From IMG/VR virus record IMGVR_UViG_3300022212_000093, positions 1 through 54,099 of that record: 54,099 bases of DNA; one strand, given 5' to 3'. The position numbers and the translations under genes were made by a program. This document shows positions 5,246 through 45,407 of this stretch, piece by piece. Numbering within the stretch: position 1 is the stretch's first letter; each line of letters starts with the position of its first letter. The notes beneath the pieces were generated by a model. The model saw only the letters and a list, made by a program, of their open reading frames with translations. It was not told where the DNA came from and searched no databases. This DNA comes from a virus.

Positions 5246-7138
5246 ATGTATATGAGTCTCCGGGAAACATTTATTTTATTCTTATATTTGTCGTCTTTAT
5301 TTTTTACAGGGTTTTTTACAGGGACTGCGTCGGCTGCCGGTGATTACATCGTAAGCCCGACGGGAGCTACAAACGACCAGGACGTTATCAACAAAGCGAT
5401 TGAAGAAGCAAGCGAGAACGGAGGCGGTACTGTCTATCTTAACCCTGGTGTCTATCTCGTAGATGGTCCAGTAATTATAAAATCAAATATTCATCTTACC
5501 GGAGACCCAAACGCGATTATAAGGGTATCCTCCACCTCTTCGCAATGGTTTAAAGGACAGATCGGGGTAATATGCAACCCTAGGGAGTCTGTGCATAATG
5601 TCGAAATATCAGGCTTCCAGATCGACGGGAATATTGCAAACCTACCTCGAAGTTACGCGAATTCAAGAAGCGACACGCGACACGACTGCGAAAAACTTAT
5701 TTTAATAGGCGGTTGGCAAAGCAATTTTGGAAGCAATATCAAAATACATGATATGAAGTTGTATAATGCCTTTAGCGACGGAATTTATATTAGATTTTCT
5801 AAGGGAGTCGCATGTTATAATAATTTCATATCAAACTGCCAACATGAAGGGATTTTCTTTTCATGTGTGCTCAATGGTTCAATTTATAAAAATAAGATTG
5901 CAGGTATAACAAGCGACTGTGCCAGGCTCGATAACTGTCAGAACTGCAAAATACACGATAACATTTTTTTCGCATACACAGGGGACAGTTACGGAGCGTA
6001 TAAGGGCGGGCACAACGGTCTGCAAATAGGGAACGCGGGAGTCTCCCACGGGTACGATGCAAGAAATAAACCATTCAAAACAAAAAATATTGAAGTTTTT
6101 AACAACGTTTTCTCTGATCCTGGGCTTAGGGCTATCTGGTACCATGGCGGGGAAAACGTGTATATACATGATAACAAGTTTGTCAATGCTGAAGAACTCG
6201 AAACCCTGGGTATTCCAGTCGGCGACATATCCTTCGAGAACCAGCCGAGTGTCGAAATGACGGAAAAAGTCTTTGGGGGTCTTCTTGAGATCCTTAACAT
6301 CGATTTCGTCGATAATGCAAGATATAACCAAACTGAGGATAGTATCAAAATACCAGTAGAGGAAAGGGACAAAGGGAAGATAAGAGGAGGTATTGTTGTC
6401 GCAGGCTTCGCCGACGTCGTTTATAAAAACGGCGTGCCTTACATCCCGGATAACGAAAGCGTACTCGTTAAAGCGATCGCCATGCCTTCACCAGCCAATA
6501 CTTTTAATGCTGGGGTCCACGGGATAGAAAAGCAGATCGAGAAAGGGATCGAAAACGGGGAAGCCTACGCGAAAATGACCGTAACAATGCACTATACCGT
6601 AAGCAGCAAAAACTCAAAAGGGGAGAAGGTTAAAAAGCTAAAGACTACTAAGGAAGTCTTCGAGGCGAAGCGGGTACCAGCTCCGGCGGTCCTTCCTCGA
6701 CCTGATAAAGTAAATTTCCGAATAGATCAACATATAGGAATTAAAAATTATACCACGGTCGCACCTTACCCCTCGGTTCCGGAGGGCCTGCAGAGGGTAG
6801 AGTATGAATATGATGGGAAGATCGTAAAACACGTTTTAGAAGTCGGTGAACGCATAAGAGGGGATAACGGTATAATTCACACAAATATAACAGAGGTCAA
6901 TTATTGGGACGGAGATCTCGACCATTTCGGAGACGGCTTGTATATTGAAGGAGAATTCGACCAGGATAAACTAAAGATCAGAGCATATACGATTTATGAG
7001 GAGATCCCAACAGAGTCAGAGTATTTCCTACATGAGTACAAAGCTCAGAGGCTCCTAAGCTTCGATAATATTATTGTGATCCTTAAAATCTTCCTGACTC
7101 TCTTTGCTTTATACCAACTCTTAAAAATCGTTTTTTAA
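5246..7138 (+). CDS. Membrane-anchored right-handed beta-helix (pectate lyase/disaggregatase-like) surface protein
   Basis: Signal peptide, DQDVINKAIEEA..GGGTVYLNPGVY beta-helix cap, parallel beta-helix repeats, C-terminal hydrophobic anchor. Confidence 0.8.
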   Translation: MYMSLRETFILFLYLSSLFFTGFFTGTASAAGDYIVSPTGATNDQDVINKAIEEASENGGGTVYLNPGVYLVDGPVIIKSNIHLTGDPNAIIRVSSTSSQWFKGQIGVICNPRESVHNVEISGFQIDGNIANLPRSYANSRSDTRHDCEKLILIGGWQSNFGSNIKIHDMKLYNAFSDGIYIRFSKGVACYNNFISNCQHEGIFFSCVLNGSIYKNKIAGITSDCARLDNCQNCKIHDNIFFAYTGDSYGAYKGGHNGLQIGNAGVSHGYDARNKPFKTKNIEVFNNVFSDPGLRAIWYHGGENVYIHDNKFVNAEELETLGIPVGDISFENQPSVEMTEKVFGGLLEILNIDFVDNARYNQTEDSIKIPVEERDKGKIRGGIVVAGFADVVYKNGVPYIPDNESVLVKAIAMPSPANTFNAGVHGIEKQIEKGIENGEAYAKMTVTMHYTVSSKNSKGEKVKKLKTTKEVFEAKRVPAPAVLPRPDKVNFRIDQHIGIKNYTTVAPYPSVPEGLQRVEYEYDGKIVKHVLEVGERIRGDNGIIHTNITEVNYWDGDLDHFGDGLYIEGEFDQDKLKIRAYTIYEEIPTESEYFLHEYKAQRLLSFDNIIVILKIFLTLFALYQLLKIVF

Positions 7139-7219
7139 TTTTTAAGTATGTAGTTTATCCGAATAAATTACATACTCTTTTCTTTTATTTTTTCTTCTGA
7201 TAGTGTTTAAGTGTTCTTA

Positions 7220-7263
7220 TTTTAGTGTTGTATATAAAGAACACTAAAATTTATATACTTTCG
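7220..7263 (+). promoter_or_regulatory. Promoter with inverted TTTTAGTGTT / AACACTAAAA operator pair and TATA box (TTTATATA)
   Basis: 10 bp inverted repeat at 7220-7229 and 7240-7249, followed directly by the TATA box, upstream of the 7281 operon. Confidence 0.55.
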
Positions 7264-7280
7264 AGACATATTGGATTTAT

Positions 7281-7670
7281 ATGAAAACTAAACAAGTATT
7301 TACAGCTGCTGCCTGGTTATCCCTGGCAGGTTTGGCGAGCACAGCCTCGGCTGCAGTCTCGCAGAATGGCACGTCTGTGTATATCCAACCAGACGCAGTG
7401 AACGGGTACAATAAATTAACCCAGTTTAATTTGTTTGGCTATCTCCTAGATTTCTTGGATATAGTCAACTATCTGGTTTATATCGCGGCTATTATCGTCG
7501 CTCTTTATTGTACCTTGCTCGTTATCATCAACATAGTAAACGGGAAAAGAGACCCGAAAGCAATAAGGGACGAGCTGTCCGCTCAGGAAGGGCTCGTTAA
7601 GGTCGTAAAAATTATAGTTTATATGAAAGTTGCCTTAATGATTATCGACTTTGTCTTCTACATAACATAA
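7281..7670 (+). CDS. Small membrane protein, VirB2/TrbC pilin-like candidate
   Basis: Signal peptide plus two hydrophobic helices; first gene of the operon ending in the VirB4-like ATPase. Confidence 0.5.
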   Translation: MKTKQVFTAAAWLSLAGLASTASAAVSQNGTSVYIQPDAVNGYNKLTQFNLFGYLLDFLDIVNYLVYIAAIIVALYCTLLVIINIVNGKRDPKAIRDELSAQEGLVKVVKIIVYMKVALMIIDFVFYIT

Positions 7671-7686
7671 AAGGAGAGCGGAAACG

Positions 7687-8628
7687 ATGCGACTGCTTCC
7701 CATCTTCGGTATTATTTTTTTATTTTCTTTTTCAGTCGTCCCGGTCATGGCTGCAGACGACGATAATACTGCAGCTCTCAAAGGAATAATAACCGGGGCA
7801 TTTGACGACTGGGTTACAAAACAAGCGGACGGGCTGGTCAAGGACTCAAAGCTCGTAAGTTCAAACAATACCGGCGATGAGGCGAGAGTCGGCGTTTTCG
7901 ATTTCGTTGTCTCTCCAATAACAATATTAGAGGATGGAACCTTCCAGAAAGAGACAATACAAATTTTTATTATTTTGGCGAAAATCCTGGTTATTATTGT
8001 CGCTCTGCTTGCATTAGTGCAGATTTTAGACCCGGATGCAGCCGGGGGAATAACAGAATTTTTCCACGGCAGAGCGACATATTACGAGCCGAAAGACGTG
8101 TTTAAAACGGGAATAAACCTCGCCTTATGGTTCCTTTGTGGTCCAGGGATCTTAATCGGTATGTTTTGGCTCTGTAATAACTGGGTTGGCCGGATGGATA
8201 CTTCTGTCCTCGATCAGGTGATCGTCTCTTCAGATAACCTCCCTAATTATGTAATTTTTGGGTTATCTGCTAAGGGCCTTAAAATTTACATGTCGATAAG
8301 GACGGCTATACTGCTTTTTGCGTCAAGATATTGGTATTATCTAGGTATAATGCTCGCATGGAAAAAGACACGATGGGTAGGAATTCTTATTCTCGAATAT
8401 ATCGCGGTTCAGGTTTTCGTCCAGCCTGTTTTAGTTAGTCTGTTAACTGAAACGGTCGGCTACACTTTAGACGGAGGCTTCGGGTTCCTCGTTGATATGG
8501 TAGTATACGGAGGTCTAGCAATCTTAATGTCTTTAATATGTTTCGTGGCACTCACTTGCCCGGTGTGGATAAAATTGTTTAGTCCTAACACATTAAGGTC
8601 AGTTGTAGGGATCGCAAAAATCGCATAA
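7687..8628 (+). CDS. Polytopic membrane protein, VirB6/TrbL-like candidate
   Basis: Signal peptide plus several predicted TM segments; operon context. Confidence 0.55.
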   Translation: MRLLPIFGIIFLFSFSVVPVMAADDDNTAALKGIITGAFDDWVTKQADGLVKDSKLVSSNNTGDEARVGVFDFVVSPITILEDGTFQKETIQIFIILAKILVIIVALLALVQILDPDAAGGITEFFHGRATYYEPKDVFKTGINLALWFLCGPGILIGMFWLCNNWVGRMDTSVLDQVIVSSDNLPNYVIFGLSAKGLKIYMSIRTAILLFASRYWYYLGIMLAWKKTRWVGILILEYIAVQVFVQPVLVSLLTETVGYTLDGGFGFLVDMVVYGGLAILMSLICFVALTCPVWIKLFSPNTLRSVVGIAKIA

Positions 8629-8641
8629 GGAGGCTTATTAA

Positions 8642-9532
8642 ATGACCAACGCACCCCCCGCGACGTTGAAGAAGGCTTACACGGGGCTCTCAGGGACCAG
8701 GGAAAAATCAAAAAAATTCTTGATTTCCGCTGGGACTGCTTTTTTAGACCTGGAGCTCGCGAGCCGTGCAAGAGAGATATATCGAGTTTACGGGTATGAT
8801 AATTATCTACTTCATTTTTATATCGGACTCGGATTGGTGGTTACTGCCACCGTCTGGATCTGCTTAAAAGACGACGCGGTCTTTTATAAAGTCGGTAATT
8901 TCTTAGACTTTTTATACAGATGGATAATGAGAAAAGATTTCGTTTATAAACATGATGATAAAAAAACAAGCGACAAAGACATCGACGAGCACGTAAAAGT
9001 TAAGAAAATGTCTGAGCTCGGCATAATTTGGTTTAAGATCCTGACAATATACAAAAGATACAAGTGTAACACCGGGGTTATTTTCGTAGTCAATCCCCAG
9101 AACGTACAGGACCTCGATGAATTTAACGAGAACACTGCACTGCTTCTATACAGCCTGCAGCCTGGTATCCTGCAGAAATACCACACGATTCAGAGCCAAG
9201 ATATGAGCGACATAGCCGAGCAATACGAGGAAAGGCTCAAATTACCACCCGAGGAGCTGGGACCGGCTGAGAGAGTCGGGCTTTTTTACACCAAACAATT
9301 TTTACAAAGTCTTTCAGGGAGAGTTAACTGGGCTTATTTCATTTTCCTCGGTACTGGCTATTATACAGATGAAGAAAAAGCTAACCTGGAAGTATCTAGG
9401 ATTATTAAAGCCTATCAGCTCTTTCTCGAAAATTCCGGTATTGAGTCAAGGCTCATAACCTCGCCTTACGAGTACGAATTGATAACGAAGCAAATGAGGA
9501 GCATGAAAAACATAGGGGTGGTTACTGTATGA
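8642..9532 (+). CDS. Membrane protein with soluble C-terminal domain, VirB3/PrgI/TrsD-like candidate
   Basis: One hydrophobic segment near residue 55-75; overlaps the start of the VirB4-like gene, the usual position of VirB3/PrgI. Confidence 0.45.
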   Translation: MTNAPPATLKKAYTGLSGTREKSKKFLISAGTAFLDLELASRAREIYRVYGYDNYLLHFYIGLGLVVTATVWICLKDDAVFYKVGNFLDFLYRWIMRKDFVYKHDDKKTSDKDIDEHVKVKKMSELGIIWFKILTIYKRYKCNTGVIFVVNPQNVQDLDEFNENTALLLYSLQPGILQKYHTIQSQDMSDIAEQYEERLKLPPEELGPAERVGLFYTKQFLQSLSGRVNWAYFIFLGTGYYTDEEKANLEVSRIIKAYQLFLENSGIESRLITSPYEYELITKQMRSMKNIGVVTV

Positions 9533-12168
9533 GTATTCCAATAATGCATAAGATCCTTCCAAAGCCCATAAAGAGAAGCTGGGCAGAATACAAATGTTTT
9601 TTAAACGTTAAAAACTGGTATAAACAGTTTGAGGAGATCGACAGGCGGCTCGTCCTGTCCCTTTCTCCTACTGTTTTTAAGCCAAAATGGGGAGGGCGGT
9701 ATCTATACGCTGACGGCTGCTATATGCAGATTATAAGCGTAGGAGATCCAAGTCCAATTAATCCTAATAGGCAGGGAATACCCCCTAGAAAGGATCTTAG
9801 GCTTATAGATGACCTGCTAGCCATTCCGACTGGGGAAAATGCCTGCATAGGAATTACGCAGACTGCTATACCCCTGCCTCCGCGAGACGAGATCGAAGCT
9901 CTCGAAAATGCAAGGCGCGAAAACATCCTGGCGGCTGCAATGCAGGAATCCGAAAACGAGGGCGTCTTTAAAAATATTCACGATAAAATTATAGATTACA
10001 TAGCTGAGGGAATAAACGAATACAACCGGGCAGTATTCGAGGGCCGCATGAGAATGTTTGAATTCTCGCTCTTGATAGCTGTTAAGGGGAAGACTACAAA
10101 AGACGTAGACGACCTTATGAGCCTGATTATTGCTCTCCTGGACGGTAAGAGGGTAATACATGAAATTTTAGAATATGGACAAGTCGATGCCTATTATATG
10201 ATGATGCCGACGCCGTTTGTAAAAGAAAGGTTACTCTCGACCACAACAGGCGAGATGGTAGCCAGGACCAGCCCGTTACGAAATAAAAACCCGAGGCTAG
10301 CGAAGTCGGGCCACTGGCTAGGGATCAATGAGGACACAAATAACCCAATTTTCTTAAATTTCAAAGACGGGAGCCTGGTTTCTGGTCATGCTATTGTAAT
10401 CGGGAAGTCGGGGTCCGGGAAGTCGACTGAGCTTCTTAAGGACGATAAAAGAGTTCTTGAGATGGGAGACGAGGCTTTCCATATAGTCCCGAAAGCAGAC
10501 GAAGACACAAACCACATTAATGTATGTAAAGAACTTGGTGGGCAGCTTATTAAGATCGGGCATAAGCGGGCGGGAGCACAAGATGCTGACTCTAACCCTA
10601 ACATGTTCCAGGTCTTCTTTGATCCGGAAAGAATGGATACCTCATTAGGATCCTACCAGCTTGCGTTTTCTAAACATATGTCTCTTTTGCCTGATGTCAT
10701 CGGGCTCCTAATTGGTGACAGTTTTTCAGACCCTCAGAGAAATTGGGTATATAGCTCGCTGGTAGAGTTATACCACAGGCGAGGAGTGATAGACGACAAC
10801 GGAAACGTCATCAACCTTGATAAATGGGAAGATGGCAACTTCTGGCCTAACTTCGACGACTGGCGGGCTCTCATATATGAGTGGATGCAAGACGATGAGC
10901 ACAAAGCTCCTCATGTGAATTCTGTCCTTGCTGCAATCTATAACAATACAACCATGATAACCAAGAAGGGGCCATATGGTTTCTTGGTCAATAACAATAT
11001 CCTAAAGCTTAGGAATAGATTTACAATGGTTGACCTTTCCGAGCTCATTGATACCCCTCATATCCAGGACGCGATGATCCTGCTTATAACAGGGATAATA
11101 AATACAAAAATACAATGTGTCCCGAAGGGGCAGGTTAAAAAACATATTTTCATTACATTGGACGAGGGCGCAAACCTGGTTAAAATTCCACGGATGCGGC
11201 ACGTAATCGAAAGGATGTTCAGAGAGCTTCGCAGTTTTGGAGGTCATCTTAAAATAGTATTCCAAGACCTTGCAGGCGTGCCCCCAGAGATGATAAACAT
11301 GATGAAAACAAATTCCGACTACGTGCTCCTGCTTTCTAACATGTCGGCCTATAACATAAAGCCGTTAGTTAAAGAATTTAACCTCACTAGAAACGACATA
11401 AGGAGACTTAAAGCGAAAGGAAAAGGAAAGGGCCTCCTGATCATCGGAGACACGCGTATAAACTATTTCAATTCACTTACACCAGATGATGAGAGGGTAA
11501 TCTTTGGGAAATCGTTGAAAGTTGATTCTGAGAATACAGAGCAGTCGGCTGGATTCAGCCTGGATAAAAGAGTTCAATGGGTAAAGGATAAGCACAAAGT
11601 ATTTTTAAAAGACTGGCTGGTTGGTATTAACCTTAATCAGGTTATACGGGTACCCGGTTACGAGATGGAGCAATTCGACCATCCATTCCAGGCTGGAAAG
11701 AAAACGGCTTATATTGAAGTCGGGCTCGAAAAAGAGGATGGGCACATCAAAAACCAAACAAAGGAACATTACCTCTTTGTCTGTGCTCTCGCAGGCGAAT
11801 GCTCATTAATGGGAGCAGTCGCAACTACTGACGACTACGGCACAGGGCAGGAAGTAGACGTTAAGCTAGTCTTCAACCAGGGTACAGCTAACGAAACTGT
11901 AATCGGGATTGAAGTTGAAATCGAAAGATCGCATACTGTAAAGGAGCTCCAGGAAAAACGAGACAGGTTATTGATGAGAAAACGCGATGGGAAGCCTGAA
12001 TTTGACCATATAATTTTCACAGGAACACATGATTATTATAAAACGACACTCCGCGACGCGGTCGGACCTGATTTCTCAGCACCTAGAGGGAAGAGGCTTA
12101 AAGATAAAATACTCGCCTGCGTGAAAGCAGGAAAGAGGGCGACCGATAGCGATAATTTAGAGGACTGA
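9529..12168 (+). CDS. virB4: VirB4/TraG-like ATPase with C-terminal nuclease-like extension
   Basis: Walker A GKSGSGKST, Walker B ITLDEGA, downstream RELRSFGG and FQD motifs of the VirB4/HerA-FtsK group; long N-terminal VirB4-type region; 879 aa. Confidence 0.8.
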   Translation: MSIPIMHKILPKPIKRSWAEYKCFLNVKNWYKQFEEIDRRLVLSLSPTVFKPKWGGRYLYADGCYMQIISVGDPSPINPNRQGIPPRKDLRLIDDLLAIPTGENACIGITQTAIPLPPRDEIEALENARRENILAAAMQESENEGVFKNIHDKIIDYIAEGINEYNRAVFEGRMRMFEFSLLIAVKGKTTKDVDDLMSLIIALLDGKRVIHEILEYGQVDAYYMMMPTPFVKERLLSTTTGEMVARTSPLRNKNPRLAKSGHWLGINEDTNNPIFLNFKDGSLVSGHAIVIGKSGSGKSTELLKDDKRVLEMGDEAFHIVPKADEDTNHINVCKELGGQLIKIGHKRAGAQDADSNPNMFQVFFDPERMDTSLGSYQLAFSKHMSLLPDVIGLLIGDSFSDPQRNWVYSSLVELYHRRGVIDDNGNVINLDKWEDGNFWPNFDDWRALIYEWMQDDEHKAPHVNSVLAAIYNNTTMITKKGPYGFLVNNNILKLRNRFTMVDLSELIDTPHIQDAMILLITGIINTKIQCVPKGQVKKHIFITLDEGANLVKIPRMRHVIERMFRELRSFGGHLKIVFQDLAGVPPEMINMMKTNSDYVLLLSNMSAYNIKPLVKEFNLTRNDIRRLKAKGKGKGLLIIGDTRINYFNSLTPDDERVIFGKSLKVDSENTEQSAGFSLDKRVQWVKDKHKVFLKDWLVGINLNQVIRVPGYEMEQFDHPFQAGKKTAYIEVGLEKEDGHIKNQTKEHYLFVCALAGECSLMGAVATTDDYGTGQEVDVKLVFNQGTANETVIGIEVEIERSHTVKELQEKRDRLLMRKRDGKPEFDHIIFTGTHDYYKTTLRDAVGPDFSAPRGKRLKDKILACVKAGKRATDSDNLED

Positions 12169-12249
12169 GAAAACCAGAATTCAGGAAATCCACCTGATTT
12201 TAACCTCAATTCTACCGAAAGCGACGCTCTGACGGCTTAACTCCTTGCG

Positions 12250-12358
12250 GTACTGTCCCTAACGGGACATACGGCTCGCTATAGCTCCGGGCTATAATAA
12301 GCCCGGCATACGCTCGCCTATAGTCCCTTAAGGTCCAGTCCCTCCGGGCTTAAGCCCG
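12250..12358. other. Cluster of short GC-rich hairpins/palindromes after the VirB4-like gene
   Basis: TGTCCC-TAAC-GGGACA, TATAGC/GCTATA, CCGGGCT/AGCCCGG, perfect palindrome CGGGCTTAAGCCCG. Confidence 0.7.
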
Positions 12359-12451
12359 TCGGGAACGATTAAAACCCACGCGATTATAAAAATAAAATTG
12401 TGTTACTTATTATTACAGAAGATATGAATTGTAATAACGAGGGTTTCCAAG

Positions 12452-12850
12452 ATGAATAACTTTTTAAATGTCTCCTGCGATTGTGTTTTTATGAAAGGAG
12501 AAGAAGATGAACCTAAAAAAGAAAGGGTTGGAAGTGGTATGTATCATGCAGTAGACCTTGATGAATGGGACGACCCTTTCCCTGTTCTCACGATAGGCAA
12601 CAAAGGGCGAGTACATCTCCCTCTTCGTTATCTCGACTCTGACATATGGGTATTCATTTCTGAAGCGGCAGACATAAGGGAAAAATGTAATCTTATATTA
12701 TTACCCAAAACAGGGCCGACAAAGTGGGTAGAGGTCTTTCAATCAAGAGGGAAAAACGCAGGAGACCTTTTAAATGTCTTCGGAAACGGCGATATTTGCG
12801 TAAAATATAAAAAAGGTATGAATGTTAAAGTATTCGTGAGGAGAGCATGA
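12452..12850 (+). CDS. Hypothetical protein
   Basis: 132 aa ORF, ATGA overlap with the next gene. Confidence 0.65.
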   Translation: MNNFLNVSCDCVFMKGEEDEPKKERVGSGMYHAVDLDEWDDPFPVLTIGNKGRVHLPLRYLDSDIWVFISEAADIREKCNLILLPKTGPTKWVEVFQSRGKNAGDLLNVFGNGDICVKYKKGMNVKVFVRRA

Positions 12851-13269
12851 ATTTAGAATTTACCCCCTTAAAAGTTATTTTGCTTATGATCCTAGCAGCT
12901 ACCGGCGGGATCATTGGAGGGCAGCACATAGCAGCACAGGTCCAGCAGGTCGACCAAGCGGAGAGCTTCGAGGATCAGATCAGAGCAAACGTTATACAGG
13001 TAGATAACGAGATTCAGGCGCTTAAGCTGGCATATAATAACTCAAGCGTCGGATATTTCCGGGCAGACTGCCAGAATACGCAGCAGTATATAACGGAGAA
13101 ATGGCTGGCAGCGAGCCGAGACTCAGGCATGAGCCAGGAGGACCGGAGGCTTAACGCAGAATACAGGGATTTTTTAGTCGAAGCCAGCAGCATTATAGAC
13201 GTTTACCTGGCGAGAAGTAACCCGGACTTCACAGAGTATGAAAAATACAGAGACAATTTATTAAAATGA
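12847..13269 (+). CDS. Membrane-anchored/secreted hypothetical protein
   Basis: N-terminal hydrophobic helix followed by a helical soluble domain. Confidence 0.7.
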   Translation: MNLEFTPLKVILLMILAATGGIIGGQHIAAQVQQVDQAESFEDQIRANVIQVDNEIQALKLAYNNSSVGYFRADCQNTQQYITEKWLAASRDSGMSQEDRRLNAEYRDFLVEASSIIDVYLARSNPDFTEYEKYRDNLLK

Positions 13270-13335
13270 ATATTGAGGTTCTTTTTCTTGCATGTTTATA
13301 AATTTGCGTAGGGGTTTAATAAGGATTTTGGGAAG

Positions 13336-13674
13336 TTATAACCCCCTATTATGTATCGCCCAATATCTTTCTATTTTCTCTTTATCCGAACGCCCTTCAG
13401 CAGTTAATACATTCAATTCCGCTTTTAATTTAGCCACTTGTTTTCGATAACGGTTAATGTCTTCTTGAACGTATTTACATCTGGGATTCGGAAAACACCC
13501 TTTCTCGATGTCTCTATTGATGTATTCCATATAATCTTTTATCGTGTCTTCCTTTTGCTCTATCTCGAAGTTTATAGTTATTATTTGAGAATTGATAAAT
13601 GAACGATCACACCATTCATCAGAACACACTTTAAAAGGATTGTTTGTTAGTATTTCCCATTCGTCGATAGGCAT
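13336..13674 (-). CDS. Hypothetical coiled-coil protein
   Basis: GGGGTT RBS-like sequence, ATG, heptad-like helices. Confidence 0.6.
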   Translation of the reverse strand: MPIDEWEILTNNPFKVCSDEWCDRSFINSQIITINFEIEQKEDTIKDYMEYINRDIEKGCFPNPRCKYVQEDINRYRKQVAKLKAELNVLTAEGRSDKEKIERYWAIHNRGL

Positions 13675-13715
13675 ATGTTAAACCCCTTGAAATCGTTATC
13701 AGTTCTGAGCGGTAG

Positions 13716-13805
13716 TTAATAACATTTAAGCCACGGCCTCCAGATTCTCAGCTTAACCCTAACAGTTTTAGGGAATTTTCGGCCCACTGGAACGATGTAA
13801 GCCAC
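13716..13805 (-). CDS. Basic microprotein (29 aa)
   Basis: GTG start directly after the upstream stop, GGGGTGG RBS-like sequence; MAYIVPVGRKFPKTVRVKLRIWRPWLKCY. Confidence 0.35.
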   Translation of the reverse strand: MAYIVPVGRKFPKTVRVKLRIWRPWLKCY

Positions 13806-14090
13806 TTAGACCACCCCCAAGCACTTTAATACGCCCACGAAAGCAAAATATTCGTAAGCTGAGAAAAGAAGGGCTGAGGGATAAGATTTATTTTTCAATG
13901 CTAAACCGGCTAATATTGGATTCGCCATGCAGAAAAACACCTGCGCTAGAAGGTTATTCCCGACTGATAAGTAATAAGAGCCAGACAGCCCAAGGGCGGC
14001 GGAAAGTACATCGAATCGTAAAAGACTCTTATTAACATAACTTAAATAATTTTTGCCGTAACTGTTAGACTGTTTTACTGTCATGGTCAT
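13806..14090 (-). CDS. Small membrane protein
   Basis: GGAGG RBS; about three hydrophobic segments. Confidence 0.65.
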   Translation of the reverse strand: MTMTVKQSNSYGKNYLSYVNKSLLRFDVLSAALGLSGSYYLSVGNNLLAQVFFCMANPILAGLALKNKSYPSALLFSAYEYFAFVGVLKCLGVV

Positions 14091-14118
14091 TTAATAAGCC
14101 TCCTCTATAAAACTAAAT

Positions 14119-14295
14119 TTAATAAAACATTTGTTCATAAAATTGGAGAGCGTGATCTCGCATTTTATATGGGTCGAAACATTGGATAGTAAAATCCCCG
14201 GCGGCAGCTCTTAGAAAAATAGAGCAGTTAAAACAATTTAAACGGTAACATTCTCCAGCGTCGGCAGGAAGTTCGCTTATCATTACGTCTTGCAT
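14119..14295 (-). CDS. Hypothetical protein (58 aa)
   Basis: AAGGTG RBS, ATG; below the ORF-track length cut-off; fills the operon gap. Confidence 0.55.
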   Translation of the reverse strand: MQDVMISELPADAGECYRLNCFNCSIFLRAAAGDFTIQCFDPYKMRDHALQFYEQMFY

Positions 14296-14307
14296 ATCAG
14301 CACCTTA

Positions 14308-14652
14308 TCAAAGTTGATATTTTCTTCTCGGTCCTGGATAATCTACCTCGTCTAAATGATATGATACAGTTTCCCCGTTTTTCCAGTAACTCTTATAACT
14401 ATAATTCTTACCCACTTCGGCGGTTTTGTACTGTTCTTCAGTAACCAACCACGGAAGGCGAAACTCCTCATTTTGTAACGTTACGCTGAAATATTCAGCC
14501 CCGCCATGCGTAAATGAATGTTTCTCTACACACGTTCCGTTAAATTCGTCACGGAGTTCAGGCTCAGGCGGGCGAATTGAGTCGGATATTATATGTGTGG
14601 ATACAATCAGAAGAATTATAAATATGCCAAAGCGGAGATTTGCATAGGTCAT
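14308..14652 (-). CDS. Single-pass membrane hypothetical protein
   Basis: N-terminal TM helix followed by a beta-rich domain. Confidence 0.65.
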   Translation of the reverse strand: MTYANLRFGIFIILLIVSTHIISDSIRPPEPELRDEFNGTCVEKHSFTHGGAEYFSVTLQNEEFRLPWLVTEEQYKTAEVGKNYSYKSYWKNGETVSYHLDEVDYPGPRRKYQL

Positions 14653-14675
14653 TGTGTTTCCATCCTATCTTTGTG

Positions 14676-15053
14676 TTAAGTCCGTTGTTGCCCGACTGTC
14701 TCACATTTCCACCCGTTCGCCTGCCAGATTCTCCTTACTATTTCATCCCTCGAAATCGCCCCGCCTCGATACATCCCGACAAGTTCAGGATGTTCAGCGA
14801 GGTACTTCAAGACGTTACCATGACAGGGCTTTGGATAGCACCAACATGCAAGCCATTTACCTTTAAGTTCGTGAAGATCATCTAGTAACTTACTATCTAA
14901 AATATAGTAGGCGTATCTCCTGATTACATGCATGCGTTCACTTTCCGAGCGCATTCTATAAGGATTTCCCCATTTTGATTTTCTGTCAATTCTTACGATT
15001 TGCGAAGGGACGCGTGGAGTATAATGCATGTTGAGGATTTCGATTTCAGACAT
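14676..15053 (-). CDS. DUF4326 family protein
   Basis: RIDRKSKWGNPY ... ELKGKWLACWCYPKPCHGNVL signature. Confidence 0.85.
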   Translation of the reverse strand: MSEIEILNMHYTPRVPSQIVRIDRKSKWGNPYRMRSESERMHVIRRYAYYILDSKLLDDLHELKGKWLACWCYPKPCHGNVLKYLAEHPELVGMYRGGAISRDEIVRRIWQANGWKCETVGQQRT

Positions 15054-15085
15054 TACTCAACCCCCTTAACTTCACAAGGCGCGAT

Positions 15086-15523
15086 TCACAACGTCCATTT
15101 TGCCCTGGGAGGGCGCAAGTATTTTTTGTCGTATGGAAGCCCTTCAATTTCTTGAAGTTTTGTCTTTTTGCATTCCTCAGATGTGAGATCATAATTGTAT
15201 CTAATATTAATCTCTCGGAGCGCTTGATCTACATCTGGAACTGGCTCCACTATGAAGCACGGGCTCCTGTAGTACTTCCGATTCGCGACGAAACGGAAGC
15301 AATATGCTCCACGTTCTACATATTTCAGCCCCCCCGGAAACGCGGGGATTTCGGAAGGGTCAACATATTTGAATACTTCTGAGTACATCTGTCTATCAGA
15401 TGCACCCTCTATTTCAAGTTCTCTAAGTCTTGCGTACAAGACTTTATTTACTATTTTTTTGAATGTGTTATCCAATATCTCTGGAGGAAAACTGTTCTCC
15501 AGTGCGTTGAGTCTGGAGGTCAT
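15086..15523 (-). CDS. Hypothetical protein
   Basis: GGAGG RBS, 145 aa, tightly packed in the operon. Confidence 0.7.
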   Translation of the reverse strand: MTSRLNALENSFPPEILDNTFKKIVNKVLYARLRELEIEGASDRQMYSEVFKYVDPSEIPAFPGGLKYVERGAYCFRFVANRKYYRSPCFIVEPVPDVDQALREINIRYNYDLTSEECKKTKLQEIEGLPYDKKYLRPPRAKWTL

Positions 15524-15526
15524 TTT

Positions 15527-15922
15527 TCAGACCTCCACGAATCCAATGTGCCGGAATACTACGATCTTCCTGACTGACCCATCCGGCTGTGGGATTTCCT
15601 CGCTCTCTCTTTTCGAAAAAGCATAAACCGGAGTGAACCCGCACTCTCGGAGTGCTTTCTCGAGTGCTCCCATTAAGAACGGAGCACCGCCTATCATCAC
15701 GCGGGTGATCCATATTCTATTGTCAGTCTCACCCGCGTAGAAAGATGCCTCAGATGCTGCTATTCGCGCAAGTTCTGAGGCTCTTGCTTCGATCTCCTCT
15801 TTTGAAGGGATCTCCTCAAAAGTAAGGAGTTCCCTTATCTTATCTTTGCACATTCTAGGCTCAACGACGAGTTGAGCTTTTTGTTCTTGGGTAGCTGTGT
15901 GTTGGGTCAAATTCAGTATCAT
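15527..15922 (-). CDS. Csx20-like small CARF-related protein; candidate viral ring nuclease
   Basis: GAGGTG RBS before ATG 15922; LTQHTATQEQ and PVYAFSKRESEE...V.KIVVFRHIGF resemble the Csx20 pattern as recalled from memory. Confidence 0.55.
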   Translation of the reverse strand: MILNLTQHTATQEQKAQLVVEPRMCKDKIRELLTFEEIPSKEEIEARASELARIAASEASFYAGETDNRIWITRVMIGGAPFLMGALEKALRECGFTPVYAFSKRESEEIPQPDGSVRKIVVFRHIGFVEV

Positions 15923-16005
15923 TTTAACACCTCTAGATTTTGAAAATTCTGACATACTCTTTGTATCTCATGTTAAACTGTTTAAGCCTCCACAGTGAAG
16001 GGGTC

Positions 16006-16245
16006 TTAAGCTTCAACCCCATCTGCAATCACATTAATAACATTGATAATTCCATTCAGTGTGCCTCTTCTCTTAGAATAGTATGCAAACCCTCTGTGCT
16101 GCCCGAAGTGCTTGCCTGATCTCATGTCTTCGGGTCTGTCGCTTATCCAACCATCATTCGCGACGTACAAGCGGTTACCATCGAGTGTGAAATCCATTGC
16201 AAAGCCGTAGATTTCTTTTGCTTTTTCTAGATGTGTCGTATTCAT
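16006..16245 (-). CDS. Hypothetical protein
   Basis: Downstream of a repeated promoter box; GGAG RBS. Confidence 0.65.
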   Translation of the reverse strand: MNTTHLEKAKEIYGFAMDFTLDGNRLYVANDGWISDRPEDMRSGKHFGQHRGFAYYSKRRGTLNGIINVINVIADGVEA

Positions 16246-16300
16246 CTTTTGACTCCGTGTATTTTGTAATCCCTTTGACTTAGTATATAGTAATAGGTTT

Positions 16301-16398
16301 CAAAGTATATATAACTTACTATCTTCAGTGATGAAAGTAAATATAAAAAATAATTAATCTGGAATCTTTTTAATTTCGTCTTCGTTTCTTTCCACATA
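16301..16398. repeat. About 98 bp duplicated segment (promoter plus gene 3' end), copy A
   Basis: Near-identical to 16728-16824. Confidence 0.9.
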
Positions 16399-16431
16399 CG
16401 CCATAAGGGCAGGGATTCCACTTTCTGGCAT
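16354..16431 (-). pseudogene. 25-codon mini-ORF/remnant whose C-terminus duplicates that of 16780-17019
   Basis: MPESGIPALMAYVERNEDEIKKIPD vs ...KYVERNEEEIKKIPD. Confidence 0.5.
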
Positions 16432-16656
16432 TTACAACAACTCCTTAATTATTTCAACGAGGTCGCGCATTTCTAGCGTTACCTCGTTTTTAACTTCGTT
16501 TTTAACTTCTGTTACCACCGCTCTTTTTTCATAATGCGGCTTAACGTTCCAACCGGTTATTTTTACGTCTTTAATTTCTACCGTTGCTCCATTTCGGAGC
16601 ATTTTAACGAGGTCTTCTGTTCCTATTTCCTTCTCAACTTGTGTTCTTTGCATCAT
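16432..16656 (-). CDS. Hypothetical protein
   Basis: GGAG RBS; downstream of a repeated promoter box. Confidence 0.65.
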   Translation of the reverse strand: MMQRTQVEKEIGTEDLVKMLRNGATVEIKDVKITGWNVKPHYEKRAVVTEVKNEVKNEVTLEMRDLVEIIKELL

Positions 16657-16727
16657 CTTGGTTAACTCCTTTAATTAGCTTTGTTATTATCGTTTTCTCT
16701 TAGGTTGTACAATATACTATACAACCT

Positions 16728-16824
16728 CAAAGTATTTAAAACTTACTATCTTCAGTGAACAAAGTAAATAAAAAAATAATTAATCTGGAATCTTTTTAAT
16801 TTCTTCTTCGTTTCTTTCTACATA
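16728..16824. repeat. Duplicated segment, copy B
   Basis: Near-identical to 16301-16398. Confidence 0.9.
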
Positions 16825-17019
16825 TTTACACTTTATGCAGAACAGTAAGACGTTAGATGTCTTACGCTTCTTATTTAAAGTATATTGAGTGCTTGACTTT
16901 TTAAGATAGTATTTTTTACCCTGTTTCAGGCACTCTGGGCATAGTTTTCTAGGGTTTTTGCCTTGTCCTGTACCTGGATTTGGCCATTTTTTAGGAGTGT
17001 TCTGTTTCCGCGCTGTCAT
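16780..17019 (-). CDS. Basic zinc-ribbon protein
   Basis: CPEC...CIKC, Lys-rich. Confidence 0.7.
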   Translation of the reverse strand: MTARKQNTPKKWPNPGTGQGKNPRKLCPECLKQGKKYYLKKSSTQYTLNKKRKTSNVLLFCIKCKYVERNEEEIKKIPD

Positions 17020-17654
17020 TTTTTCAAGCTCCTTATTTGTGCGGCGAGCTCATCACTGAATGGAACTCTTACGCCAATGGCGCCTGCCCCTCCAGTCTGC
17101 ACGTTGTTTCGCCCCCAGTCGTCTCCATCAAATCCATTGTTTCGAACATACCAGATCCAGCTTTCCTGGATCACCCACCATTCACCACCACCCCACGGGT
17201 TTTTGGGATTTGTGGGGTGTTGGATCACCTCGCCTTCCACTCTCATCTTATTTTCCGTTTTTGGGTATTCTGCCTCCGAGAAGGCTTTGAGAACGTCGTC
17301 AATTTTTTCCTGTAGCTCCTTAGCTCTTTTCTCTTTCTTTTCTTTCCTCTTCTTTGCCTGTTCTCTCCTATAAGCCAGGGTAAGCTCCTCTTTTACACCG
17401 AGGATTTTCTCAACTGCTTCCGGCTGTGATGTGAGCCAGCCGTAAAGCTCTCCATCTGCGTCGTCAAAGCCAAATCTCTCGAAGTGTTCTGCTATCATTC
17501 TCCACGTTTCTCTGGGAACAAATCCACTCAGTCTGTAATATGACATCCCTGTTTCTGGACACCGTCCTGCGTACTGCAGGTAGATATTTTCTAGACTCGA
17601 TTTAGCTGTTGCATTGGTTCCGAACTTTTCTCCTGTCTTTTTCATAATAATCAA
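17016..17654 (-). CDS. Hypothetical protein (Trp/Gly-rich C-terminal domain)
   Basis: GAGGTTGA RBS, 212 aa, downstream of the third promoter box. Confidence 0.75.
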   Translation of the reverse strand: MIIMKKTGEKFGTNATAKSSLENIYLQYAGRCPETGMSYYRLSGFVPRETWRMIAEHFERFGFDDADGELYGWLTSQPEAVEKILGVKEELTLAYRREQAKKRKEKKEKRAKELQEKIDDVLKAFSEAEYPKTENKMRVEGEVIQHPTNPKNPWGGGEWWVIQESWIWYVRNNGFDGDDWGRNNVQTGGAGAIGVRVPFSDELAAQIRSLKK

Positions 17655-17680
17655 CCTCTATAATATACAAGGCACACAAC

Positions 17681-17707
17681 ATATATAAAACTTACTATCT
17701 TCAGTGA
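17681..17707 (-). promoter_or_regulatory. Conserved early promoter TCACTGAAGATAGTAAGT plus TATA box (also at 16314-16331 and 16741-16758)
   Basis: 18 bp box identical in three copies, each directly followed on the minus strand by a TATA-like sequence and then a gene. Confidence 0.8.
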
Positions 17708-17833
17708 ACAAAGTGAACTTCTAAACAACTAAATAAATAAAATGAATTATTTAAATATGTAATAATTTATATAGTTAATGTTCTAATAATCACATGCTAA
17801 AAAAATACAGGAGCCTTGTAATGAAAGAACCAC

Positions 17834-18262
17834 GTGGTGGAAATGCCGAATTATGATACACATAAATTCCTCTGCCTTCTCCCCCTGCCTCTCGTCCTGG
17901 TCTTTCTAGTGATGGCATACGACGGAGGCTTCGTCGAGATCGTGCCTATAATTTTATGTCTGGTCTGGTGGCTGCTGCACACCCTCGTTATAACTCCAGA
18001 CATAGATACGCTTTCGATACCCTCTAAGCGACTGGGACCATTAGGATTGATAATAAGGAAACTGTCAACGCACAGGAAAACCTGGCACTCTCCATTTTTC
18101 TGGGCCGCATATTTTTGCCTGAGTTACAATTATCTCGGCTGGTGGACCCTGGGCGGGGTTTTCCCTGTTTACTGTCATATTTTCGTTGATATAATCGACC
18201 ACGCCTATAAAGTACAGAAACGAAAAATATTAAAGAAGCTTCGTTTAAACGGCTTATTCTGA
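17834..18262 (+). CDS. DUF2227/YdjM-like metal-binding membrane protein
   Basis: MPNYDTH, TPDID, THRKTWHS and CHIFVD motifs with TM segments. Confidence 0.7.
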   Translation: MVEMPNYDTHKFLCLLPLPLVLVFLVMAYDGGFVEIVPIILCLVWWLLHTLVITPDIDTLSIPSKRLGPLGLIIRKLSTHRKTWHSPFFWAAYFCLSYNYLGWWTLGGVFPVYCHIFVDIIDHAYKVQKRKILKKLRLNGLF

Positions 18263-18308
18263 GGCTCTCTAAGCCTCTAACTCTTTTTTGTTAAGGCTCT
18301 TATACCTT

Positions 18309-18371
18309 GAAGCCCGAGAAATAGCCAGGAACACTTCGAGATTAAACCGGCTCCTGGTAACGTTTTCCTTA
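18309..18371 (+). repeat. 63 bp direct repeat, copy 1
   Basis: Identical to 19247-19309. Confidence 0.95.
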
Positions 18372-18734
18372 ATGTAAAATAATCTCGATAAAGTCGGTGG
18401 GTTCAATTCCCTTAAAAAATTGAGTCCCCACTGCTAAACGTTTTTTATCGAGAGAACTTTGAGAAATGTCTTCATATTCATAAGTTATTCTTTTAGGTTT
18501 TTTGTGTTTGTCTCTCCTGATATCATTTTCATCGAATTCCACAGAGTCAGCGCAAATAAGAGTAGGTTCTTTTTTCACTACAAGAATATCAATTTTTAGA
18601 GAAGTGTGCGCTTTTATTCCGTTTATTGCCGCACCTGCTTTTAGTCGCCCCTCTTTCATCTCTGATGGGGCTATATCAGACATTGATAATACTGTACGTG
18701 TTTGAATGTTGGAAAAAATGAGTTTAGAGGTCAT
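18369..18734 (-). CDS. Hypothetical protein inside the repeat-flanked cassette
   Basis: ATGA-coupled to 18731-19135; its stop codon is the last 3 nt of repeat copy 1. Confidence 0.65.
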   Translation of the reverse strand: MTSKLIFSNIQTRTVLSMSDIAPSEMKEGRLKAGAAINGIKAHTSLKIDILVVKKEPTLICADSVEFDENDIRRDKHKKPKRITYEYEDISQSSLDKKRLAVGTQFFKGIEPTDFIEIILH

Positions 18735-19135
18735 TTTTCGACCTCGTAATATCCGCTTAGTTTTGCGAGTTCTTCAGTTCTGAAAACCTGTCCTGTTGCT
18801 GGCACGTATTCGGGGATTCCTTTTTGTTTTTCAGTGTAGATCAGGAAGACCTCTTCATCAAGGGCACTTTCCAGCAGGAAGCTTTCTCCGTGTTCTTCAG
18901 GGTCGTCGTCTTCCCCGAAGTTTACTTTTACAAAACTATTACCTTCATAAGTGATTTTATCGTCAATCCAGACACTGAAATTTAAATCTTCTATTGGTTT
19001 TACGGCTTCGATGAATGGCGTTTCTCTTTCTTTCTCGTCTGAAATTTCATAGTATGATAGGTCGGCGTCTTGTACATATTCATACATCGTTTCATAGAGG
19101 TTTACATTTCTTCCATCTATTGTGATCATATTCAT
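18731..19135 (-). CDS. Acidic hypothetical protein inside the repeat-flanked cassette
   Basis: GGAG RBS; very Asp/Glu-rich 134 aa. Confidence 0.7.
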   Translation of the reverse strand: MNMITIDGRNVNLYETMYEYVQDADLSYYEISDEKERETPFIEAVKPIEDLNFSVWIDDKITYEGNSFVKVNFGEDDDPEEHGESFLLESALDEEVFLIYTEKQKGIPEYVPATGQVFRTEELAKLSGYYEVEK

Positions 19136-43304: not shown

Positions 43305-45407
43305 ATGGAATATAATTTTAAAACCCTAGCGGAGGTTACCTTCCCTAAATTTTTTAGTAAAGATCAGGTTTTCAACTTCGCGAAACCTGGTGAGAAAAGA
43401 GTCCCCGGTAACTACTGGGAAGAACTTTTGAAATTATGCTATGAGTACCCAGAGAGTAAAAGCTTATACGTAGAGTATAGACATGTCGAAAATTACGACT
43501 TAGACCTTGCGAAGTATCTAATAAATAACCCGAACACGTTTTTTAGCGCAGCTAAAGAGGCAATCGCTAGTATGTCTTTTCCGACTACAGACCTGCCAGA
43601 TATTGAAGTCCGTATAACTTCCATGCCTGACGCATGGCAGATACCTATAAGCAGGCTCAGGAAAGAACACCTTAATAAGCTGATATCGGTCCTCGGCGTG
43701 GTCTCTAAAGCCACGGAGATAAGACCAGTCAGGACTAAAACGGCTTTTCAGTGTCTACGCTGCGGACATGTTACAATAGTAGAGCAGAGCGAAGAGACAG
43801 ACGCCCTGCAGGAACCTTTCGCGGGCTGCGAAAACGACACCTGCGGAAAGAAAGGGCCTTTCAAGATCAAAGAGGATGAAAGCGAATATATCGACTATCA
43901 GATACTAAAGATCCAGGAACCACTAGACACGCTCAGAGGCAGACAACCCGAGTTTCTATACGTTGCCTGCAGCGAGGAACTTGCAGGAGCCTGCAAGCCT
44001 GGCGATAAAGTCGTAATCGTCGGAGTCCTGCAGGGACGCCCGAGGGTAAAGAAAGACGGAAAAAGAACAAGGTTTCTAGATTTTATCCTGGTGGCTAACT
44101 CGATAATGAAAAGTACCAGGGATTTCGAGAACATCCCGATAAGCCAGGAGGAGGAAAAGCAGATCCTCGAGCTTTCGAAGAAGCCGAACATCGACAAAAT
44201 AATTTATAACTCGATCGCGCCTTCGATCTTCGGGATGGAAAACGTTAAGCAGGGCGTCGCTTTACAGCTATTTTCAGGGACCGGGCGGCGGCTTAACGAC
44301 GGAACGTGGCAGCGCGGGGACATTCATATTCTATTAGTAGGCGACCCAGGTATCGCAAAAAGCCAGATTCTAAAATTTGTTGCCGATTTCGCACCACGGG
44401 CGATAATGGTTTCCGGGCAGTCTGCGAGCGGTGCCGGGCTTACTGGCGCGGCGGTACATGACGATTTCGATGGTAGATGGGCGATAGAAGCCGGGGCCCT
44501 CACTATGGTAAGCGGGTCCGAGGACTTCGAGGGCGGTATATGCTGCGTTGACGAAGTCGATAAAATGAAAGAAAATGATAGGTCTATGATCCACGGAGCA
44601 TTAGAACAGCAATGCGTCGACATCGCTAAAGCTGGAGTCTTTGCACACTTGCCGACTCAATGCGCTTTCCTTGGAGCTGCAAATCCCAAGTATGGGCGGT
44701 ATGATCAATACGAAAGTATAGCAACTCAATTTAATCTGGGGGACGCTCTCCTCTCCAGAATGGATTTACTTTATGTTATCCGTGACGTGCCAGACCAGGC
44801 TTTCGACGAGAAGCTGGCCTTATACGTCCTGGACGAGAGGACCGACGGAAACGGGCCGGGTTTAATAGATCTTGAATTGCTCAGGAAATACATAGCTTAT
44901 GCGAAAACACACTGCTTCCCGGTAATGACGCCAGAGGCTAGGGACTACATAGCAAAATTCTACGTGTCAACCAGGAACGCAGGCAGCAAGGTAAAGGACT
45001 CCGTACCCGTGACGGTTAGAGCTCTACATGCAGCCCGAAGGCTCGCAACAGCTCACGCAAGAATGAGGTTATCCTCTACCGTGGACCTAAAAGATGCTGT
45101 CGCAGCCTGCAAGCTCCTAATTGACAATTTAAGCCAGGTAGGAATCGACCCGGATACCGGGGCCTTAGACGCTACTGTCCTGGAGGCAGGGACGTCAGGG
45201 AGTCAGAGGTCAAACATAAAGAAGATCAAGGAAATCATAGAGAGACTCTCTAAAGCCGATATAGTACACCAGGAAGCAAAGCTCGACAGAGTCATCGAAA
45301 TGAGCCTGGAGGCTGGCATAAAAGACCCTGAGGGTTTAATTAAGAAGATGAAGCAGAAGGGCGATATAATAAGCCCGACGCAGAGCACCTTAAAATTAGT
45401 AAAATAA
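43305..45407 (+). CDS. mcm: MCM replicative helicase
   Basis: Zn finger CLRC...CENDTC, Walker A GDPGIAKSQ, Walker B VDEVDKM, AANPKYGRYD, Arg finger SRMD. Confidence 0.97.
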   Translation: MEYNFKTLAEVTFPKFFSKDQVFNFAKPGEKRVPGNYWEELLKLCYEYPESKSLYVEYRHVENYDLDLAKYLINNPNTFFSAAKEAIASMSFPTTDLPDIEVRITSMPDAWQIPISRLRKEHLNKLISVLGVVSKATEIRPVRTKTAFQCLRCGHVTIVEQSEETDALQEPFAGCENDTCGKKGPFKIKEDESEYIDYQILKIQEPLDTLRGRQPEFLYVACSEELAGACKPGDKVVIVGVLQGRPRVKKDGKRTRFLDFILVANSIMKSTRDFENIPISQEEEKQILELSKKPNIDKIIYNSIAPSIFGMENVKQGVALQLFSGTGRRLNDGTWQRGDIHILLVGDPGIAKSQILKFVADFAPRAIMVSGQSASGAGLTGAAVHDDFDGRWAIEAGALTMVSGSEDFEGGICCVDEVDKMKENDRSMIHGALEQQCVDIAKAGVFAHLPTQCAFLGAANPKYGRYDQYESIATQFNLGDALLSRMDLLYVIRDVPDQAFDEKLALYVLDERTDGNGPGLIDLELLRKYIAYAKTHCFPVMTPEARDYIAKFYVSTRNAGSKVKDSVPVTVRALHAARRLATAHARMRLSSTVDLKDAVAACKLLIDNLSQVGIDPDTGALDATVLEAGTSGSQRSNIKKIKEIIERLSKADIVHQEAKLDRVIEMSLEAGIKDPEGLIKKMKQKGDIISPTQSTLKLVK

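Follow-up and report, generated by a model that had tools for sequence, protein, structure and literature searches.

The 54,099-nucleotide DNA analysed here (the window) is the whole of the IMG/VR virus record IMGVR_UViG_3300022212_000093, and it encodes, among many other small proteins, a distant homologue of Csx20, an experimentally confirmed ring nuclease that is specific for cyclic tetraadenylate (cA4) and at high enzyme concentration also acts on cyclic triadenylate (cA3) (PMC12409355). The csx20-like gene is most likely a viral counter-defense gene directed against type III CRISPR. In the best-supported reading, which we consider probable although well short of assured, the viral protein prevents the activation of CARF effectors by degrading cA4. 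When the virus infects Methanosarcina, its RNA would be sensed by the type III CRISPR complex of the host, whose Cas10 would then synthesize cA4; the csx20-like protein, presumably a small CARF-like alpha/beta protein and most likely a homodimer, would bind cA4 and cut it to linear products, removing it before the CARF-domain effectors switch on. Acting in this manner, it would be an anti-CRISPR analogous to AcrIII-1 but not related to it. The first-pass annotation of this DNA, made from the letters alone, had linked Csx20 to ring nuclease activity, and for Csx20 itself this link has been confirmed experimentally in the study cited above.

A divergent homologue of Csx20

The gene is real and under selection. 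The first-pass annotation had the limits and the length of the open reading frame (ORF; P0001) exactly, leaving out only the strand, which is minus, and the termini that it quoted agree with the translation: the 131-aa protein begins with MILNLTQHTATQEQ and ends with VRKIVVFRHIGFVEV (the C-terminal letters are also given as VFRHIGFVEV). Translation from an alternative in-frame ATG at 15955 would lengthen the protein by 11 residues to 142 aa; the shorter form is preferred because a Shine-Dalgarno-like GAGGTG lies 5 nt upstream of its start codon and because nearly all of the 120 homologues among the matches listed are 131 aa long. Pairwise ratios of nonsynonymous to synonymous substitution rates (dN/dS) range from 0.03 to 0.15 among eight diverged copies of the gene (that of the window, those of four IMG/VR relatives, one of which has two copies, and those of two NCBI contigs), which implies that the protein is functional and under constraint.

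The viral protein is a homologue of Csx20, if a distant one. It is matched by the NCBIfam CAS_Csx20 model over positions 2-122 of 124 (E 1.9e-9) and by the PADLOC Csx20 model (E 1.2e-9), as well as by the Csx20 end of the PADLOC CARF-HEPN-Csx20 fusion model, and an hhalign comparison of the window family profile with 14 bona fide Csx20 sequences extends over 106 columns at a probability of 96.8% (E 2.1e-10). The resemblance pointed out in the first-pass annotation is thus real, significant, and full-length, and the motif given there agrees with the bona fide Csx20 sequences that we retrieved. Ten columns are conserved at 80% or more in both groups (H8, T11, Q14, G79, Y100, S/T103, R105, F123, H125, and F128), and the superfamily motifs, H-x-x-T-x-x-Q near the N-terminus, Y-x-x-(S/T)-x-R in the center, and F-x-H-x-x-F near the C-terminus, are all present, so that the key residues are kept.

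By full-length sequence-profile homology, then, the protein belongs to the Csx20/MJ1673 superfamily (PF27247), a placement that comes through its homologues and the Csx20 profiles. All close homologues carry a precomputed match to this newer Pfam family, "MJ1673", and the closest clusters in the ESM Atlas are PF27247 throughout (100%); MJ1673 is a protein of Methanocaldococcus jannaschii, and the Csx20 model finds a match above its cutoff in the control genome of that archaeon. The family is very large, with 1,775 clusters (at 50% identity) at E 0.001 or better, and at least 203 IMG/VR contigs encode relatives. The Csx20 model matches 51 of the 53 single-domain family representatives, every one of them below the cutoff. 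A Pfam-A scan of the csx20-like protein with E values up to 10 yielded only a chance nitrogenase-family match and nothing to DUF1874/AcrIII-1, in keeping with the earlier statement that the protein is unrelated to that family. The PHROGs search produced no meaningful match, the profile search of PDB sequences with the csx20-like family found nothing, and the single-protein scan of the genome contigs revealed no close relative.

For comparison, bona fide Csx20 was sought in genomes already carrying family members. A Thermoanaerobacter genome (G206; L079, L084) and a metagenome-assembled genome (MAG) of Campylobacteraceae (G209; L080, L085) each have one bona fide Csx20, scoring 157 and 138 bits, respectively, beside Csx1-type HEPN genes, and each has an extra copy on another contig that scores only 36 and 34 bits. 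Bona fide Csx20 is present in 26 of the 40 genomes of the class to which the Thermoanaerobacter genome belongs (142-171 bits) and was found in none of the 201 cyanobacterial genomes searched. In a maximum-likelihood tree, bona fide Csx20 and a mobile-element group, which includes the window protein and both second copies, are separated by a very long branch with 100/100 support, although the CRISPR-linked Csx20 in this tree was drawn from only two lineages, which limits generalization. Both groups consist of single domains of about 125-130 aa with the same predicted order of strands and helices (NF040559; PF27247; Hoikkala et al. 2025, PMC12409355). The viral protein has NLTQH, GGAP, and an invariant K119, where bona fide Csx20 has LIFSH and QGDFGAT instead. 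Unlike the bona fide genes with their Csx1-type HEPN neighbors, the viral copy has no cas genes next to it, and its ring nuclease activity is a prediction.

The virus and its host

The 54-kb window is a complete archaeal tailed virus. A 119-bp direct terminal repeat closes the record, and the encoded proteins include an HK97/linocin-type capsid protein, a tape measure, a Mu F-like protein, a portal, a large terminase, and a full-length MCM helicase with four domains. The nearest named cellular relatives of this MCM are those of Methanosarcina (46-55% identity), followed by those of other Methanosarcinaceae (about 43%); the 55% match, in Methanosarcina sp. 2.H.T.1A.6, may be proviral itself. 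A disaggregatase-related domain is present in two tail-region proteins, one close homologue of the csx20-like protein is labelled M. thermophila, and one member of the terminase cluster is labelled Methanotrichaceae. Together, the MCM relatives, the disaggregatase-related domains, and these two labels suggest that the host is Methanosarcina, or at least belongs to Methanosarcinales.

The type III content of Methanosarcina, as taken here, rests on one control genome, that of M. acetivorans, in which both Cas10 models find matches, and on the literature, which describes III-A systems in M. acetivorans and III-C systems in M. mazei (PMC7694759) and a cA4-specific Crn3 in M. mazei (PMC7371418). 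The first-pass annotation, too, has Methanosarcina species carrying type III systems, and cA4 turnover in the genus is published. The Csx1_HEPN model (PF09455) has no match in the M. acetivorans control genome, and the Csx3 model has none in any genome scanned. Nor does the Csx20 model match in M. acetivorans, so there is no sign that the virus copied its gene from the host. The Cas10 and Csx1 models find nothing in the window, and none of its annotated ORFs is a cas gene; the csx20-like gene thus lies outside the type III CRISPR locus context of Csx20, and it is encoded on a mobile element, the location expected of anti-CRISPR genes.

Weighing the proposed function

Several observations call for caution about cA4 degradation as the function of the viral protein. 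Its score with the Csx20 equivalog model NF040559 is 38 bits, short of the curated cutoff of 70 bits and far from the 138-171 bits of bona fide members, and the branch between the two clades is long. Residues N4, T6, and K119 as well as the GGAP loop are specific to the mobile-element clade. Fold searches gave no decisive CARF match, with racemase/kinase-type Rossmann-like domains scoring alike. Furthermore, a Cmr2-type Cas10 match was detected in only 8 of the 55 genomes with clade members (6 of these over the cutoff) and in none of about 25 genomes of the size typical of the candidate phyla radiation (CPR). These counts come from incomplete MAGs and from a Cmr2 model that undercounts Cas10, given that it missed the Thermoanaerobacter genome with its Csx20-Csx1 locus. 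Even allowing for this, a nucleotide target that differs from cA4 or is broader deserves serious consideration.

The sheer size of the family, and the frequency of its members in viruses, plasmids, and CPR bacteria without detectable Cas10, raise the possibility that the clade is not mainly directed against type III CRISPR. It is unlikely, albeit by no means negligible, that the mobile-element clade as a whole mainly targets another, possibly undescribed, nucleotide alarm signal while passing between bacterial and archaeal mobile elements. That the viral protein itself is a nuclease or a binder for a different nucleotide messenger, be it cA3, a CBASS-type signal, or a still unknown one, with type III immunity not its main target, we deem improbable. 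Such a role would fit the predominance of clade-bearing genomes without detectable Cmr2-type Cas10, all of the CPR-sized ones included, and the presence of clade members in phages and plasmids whose hosts vary widely. The cA3 activity of Csx20 at high enzyme concentration points the same way, the clade-invariant N4, T6, and K119 along with the very long branch would allow a change of specificity, and the csx20-like gene shares its transcription unit with a DUF4326 gene, a family predicted to act on signals derived from ADP-ribose. Yet the residues most conserved in the cA4-specific Csx20 are retained in the viral protein, and Methanosarcina has both Cas10 and cA4 turnover; moreover, the Cas10 counts are too low for the reasons given above, and mobile elements can bring counter-defense genes into hosts that lack the target.

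There is also a slim chance that the csx20-like protein acts mainly as a sponge, binding cyclic oligoadenylate but hardly turning it over, if at all. The related Csx15 turns over cA4 very slowly and has been discussed as a possible sponge, and phage sponges for cyclic nucleotides are known. However, both histidines, the arginine, and the Ser/Thr of active Csx20 show little or no variation across the clade, as one would sooner expect of an active site than of a surface that only binds. Finally, a role outside defense signaling, for instance in regulation or in the nucleotide or RNA metabolism of the virus, with only an ancestral fold shared with Csx20, is scarcely probable: the inconclusive fold searches, the lack of cas genes in the window, and the huge family often found without Cas10 would accommodate it, but the homology to Csx20 profiles is specific, with no other NCBIfam or Pfam family significant, the gene behaves as an accessory one, found in some close relatives and missing from others, which a core replication gene would not be, and published phage homologues sit in acr-aca operons (PMC13551039).

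Relation to known systems

The interpretation of the csx20-like gene as a counter-defense gene has a published precedent in bacteriophages. Csx20 was reported from four phage genomes by Hoikkala et al. (PMC12409355), a 2026 Nucleic Acids Research paper described csx20 homologues in phage anti-defense operons with the ribbon-helix-helix (RHH) regulator Aca14 in Pasteurella (csx20-aca14, Pasteurella multocida; PMC13551039), and both works cast the phage homologues as counter-defense genes, the 2026 paper proposing that they were co-opted for this role. A tblastn search with the window protein recovers Pasteurella phage Pm86 (49% identity, partial) and Rhodothermus phage RM378 (46%), which accordingly belong to the same mobile-element clade. 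The phage homologues and the archaeal viral gene thus share a clade and a proposed role; the former, however, reside in bacteriophages, whereas the window is a tailed virus of an archaeon, putatively Methanosarcina. No RHH regulator of the Aca14 type adjoins the window gene, which has instead a 145-aa partner with a weak helix-turn-helix (HTH) signal.

The proposed action resembles that of AcrIII-1/Crn2 (DUF1874), the established anti-CRISPR ring nuclease of viruses, in that a small dimeric enzyme made by the virus would destroy cA4 and thereby blunt type III immunity. AcrIII-1 represents a different family and fold class, without any sequence relationship to the csx20-like protein. Within the genus of the probable host, Crn3/Csx3 of M. 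mazei degrades the very signal proposed as the target of the viral protein (PMC7371418), but it belongs to an unrelated family and is cellular and CRISPR-linked, whereas the csx20-like protein is viral.

As for the viral ring nuclease put forward in the first-pass annotation, the homology, the key residues, and the archaeal host support it, qualified by the sub-cutoff score and the separate clade; furthermore, the proposal is less new than was implied, because phage Csx20 homologues had already been cast as counter-defense factors. The literature searched contained neither an experimental test of a viral Csx20 nor a description of one from a virus of methanogens. Very few counter-defense genes are known for methanogen viruses, and among viral ring nucleases only AcrIII-1 is well established. 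If correct, the cA4-degrading role would bring a second, unrelated ring-nuclease family into an archaeal virus, confirm the proposal made for phage Csx20 and extend it across domains, and provide a tool to switch off cA4 signaling in Methanosarcina, a genetically tractable methanogen. At the same time, the size of the clade and the many genomes that have it without Cas10 raise the question whether all its members act against type III CRISPR.

Gene neighborhood and expression

The csx20-like gene is part of a presumably co-regulated block of about 13 small ORFs, all on the minus strand, located between a TraG/VirB4-like ATPase module and the structural genes (Table 1). The window contains three exact copies, and no more, of a 25-nt cassette with a TATA-like box at its end, against an expectation of 0 by chance, and all three are in this block, within about 45 nt of conserved sequence. 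This arrangement, conserved for the cassette (which resembles a TFB recognition element, BRE, with a TATA box) in the related viruses L002, L004, and L005, suggests a putative promoter, and the three copies look like a single regulon of accessory genes. The unit that follows the third copy is tightly packed and consists of a 79-aa ORF, the csx20-like gene, a 145-aa ORF, the DUF4326 gene, and three more small ORFs.

Table 1. Coordinates of the csx20-like gene, its surroundings, and the viral helicase gene in the window
Feature	Position	Strand	Description
Small-ORF block	13336-19135	minus	about 13 small ORFs
Promoter cassette, first copy (putative; BRE/TATA-like)	17682-17706	minus	ahead of genes 17016-17654 and 16780-17019
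Promoter cassette, second copy (putative; BRE/TATA-like)	16733-16757	minus	ahead of gene 16432-16656
Promoter cassette, third copy (putative; BRE/TATA-like)	16306-16330	minus	precedes unit from 16245 to about 13806, with the csx20-like gene as second ORF
79-aa ORF	16006-16245	minus	no assigned function; opens the unit, 83 nt ahead of the csx20-like gene
Shine-Dalgarno-like GAGGTG	15928-15933	minus	before ATG at 15922; read from the sequence
csx20-like gene	15527-15922	minus	131 aa; mobile-element-clade member of the Csx20/MJ1673 (PF27247) family; candidate cA4 ring nuclease
145-aa ORF	15086-15523	minus	starts 4 nt after the csx20-like stop codon; narrow family
DUF4326 protein gene	14676-15053	minus	PF14216, E 4e-22; in the transcription unit of the csx20-like gene
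MCM helicase gene	43305-45407	plus	full-length, four domains

The csx20-like and 145-aa genes also occur together in L003 (twice), L005, and L069, and the pair is absent from the relative L004. In L003 (IMGVR_UViG_3300049639_000129), the two diverged copies of the pair are at 10001-10831 and 12098-13127, and the two csx20-like genes differ by a dN of 0.115 and a dS of 1.16. The 145-aa protein shows sub-threshold similarity to the HxlR-type HTH (E 0.0048; 17 bits versus a cutoff of 20.8 bits) and belongs to a family of 38 members; with so weak a signal and so narrow a family, its role as an Aca regulator is not supported. DUF4326 is a rhodanese-phosphatase clade predicted to process nucleotides derived from ADP-ribose in virus-host conflicts (PMC9503650), and its representative in the csx20-like unit is possibly a second counter-signaling or counter-defense enzyme.

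Assembled contigs from four anaerobic-digester RNA libraries, obtained in different studies, contain the csx20-like gene at 95-99% identity, which is consistent with its transcription, though DNA carry-over is possible. In these contigs, the 8-12 kb module is almost uncovered in three runs, and those of X16 cover the small-gene cluster but none of the structural genes at 20-25 kb; gaps in contig coverage are not evidence, and we do not use them to argue for early or selective transcription. The csx20-like gene may be expressed early, judging by the gene order and the shared putative promoter. Joined forms also occur among the RNA-library contigs, one skipping 15523-16613 and with it the csx20-like gene (X16), another skipping 13678-15056 and with it the DUF4326 block (X15, X18), which suggests population variants that differ in accessory genes.

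Occurrence on other elements and domain architectures

Three large plasmids, of Azotobacter (NZ_CP010421.1), Aromatoleum (NC_006823.1), and Caminibacter (NZ_CP040940.1), carry family members with 37-55% identity, and on the Azotobacter plasmid the csx20-like gene, annotated as hypothetical, stands alone between toxin-antitoxin pairs. About 100 plasmids of Enterobacterales show weak partial matches (27-30% identity). An 893-kb NCBI contig, L069 (GCA_900198705.1, FZPS01000083.1), with flanks of GC 0.61 and a full sigma-70 gene, contains at 7000-15000 a low-GC island in which a csx20-like gene (81% nucleotide identity to the window) and a 145-aa gene (88%) adjoin genes for YopX, HNH, and DnaB proteins; either mobile elements of bacteria and archaea have recently exchanged this island, or the assembly is chimeric. 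Apart from the single-domain form, the family includes many proteins of 260-670 aa with two or three domains in tandem (P0122-P0137, P0157), one member is fused to DUF4116 repeats, and a 740-aa Bacillota cluster in the ESM Atlas joins MJ1673 and "MJ1674_2nd" domains.
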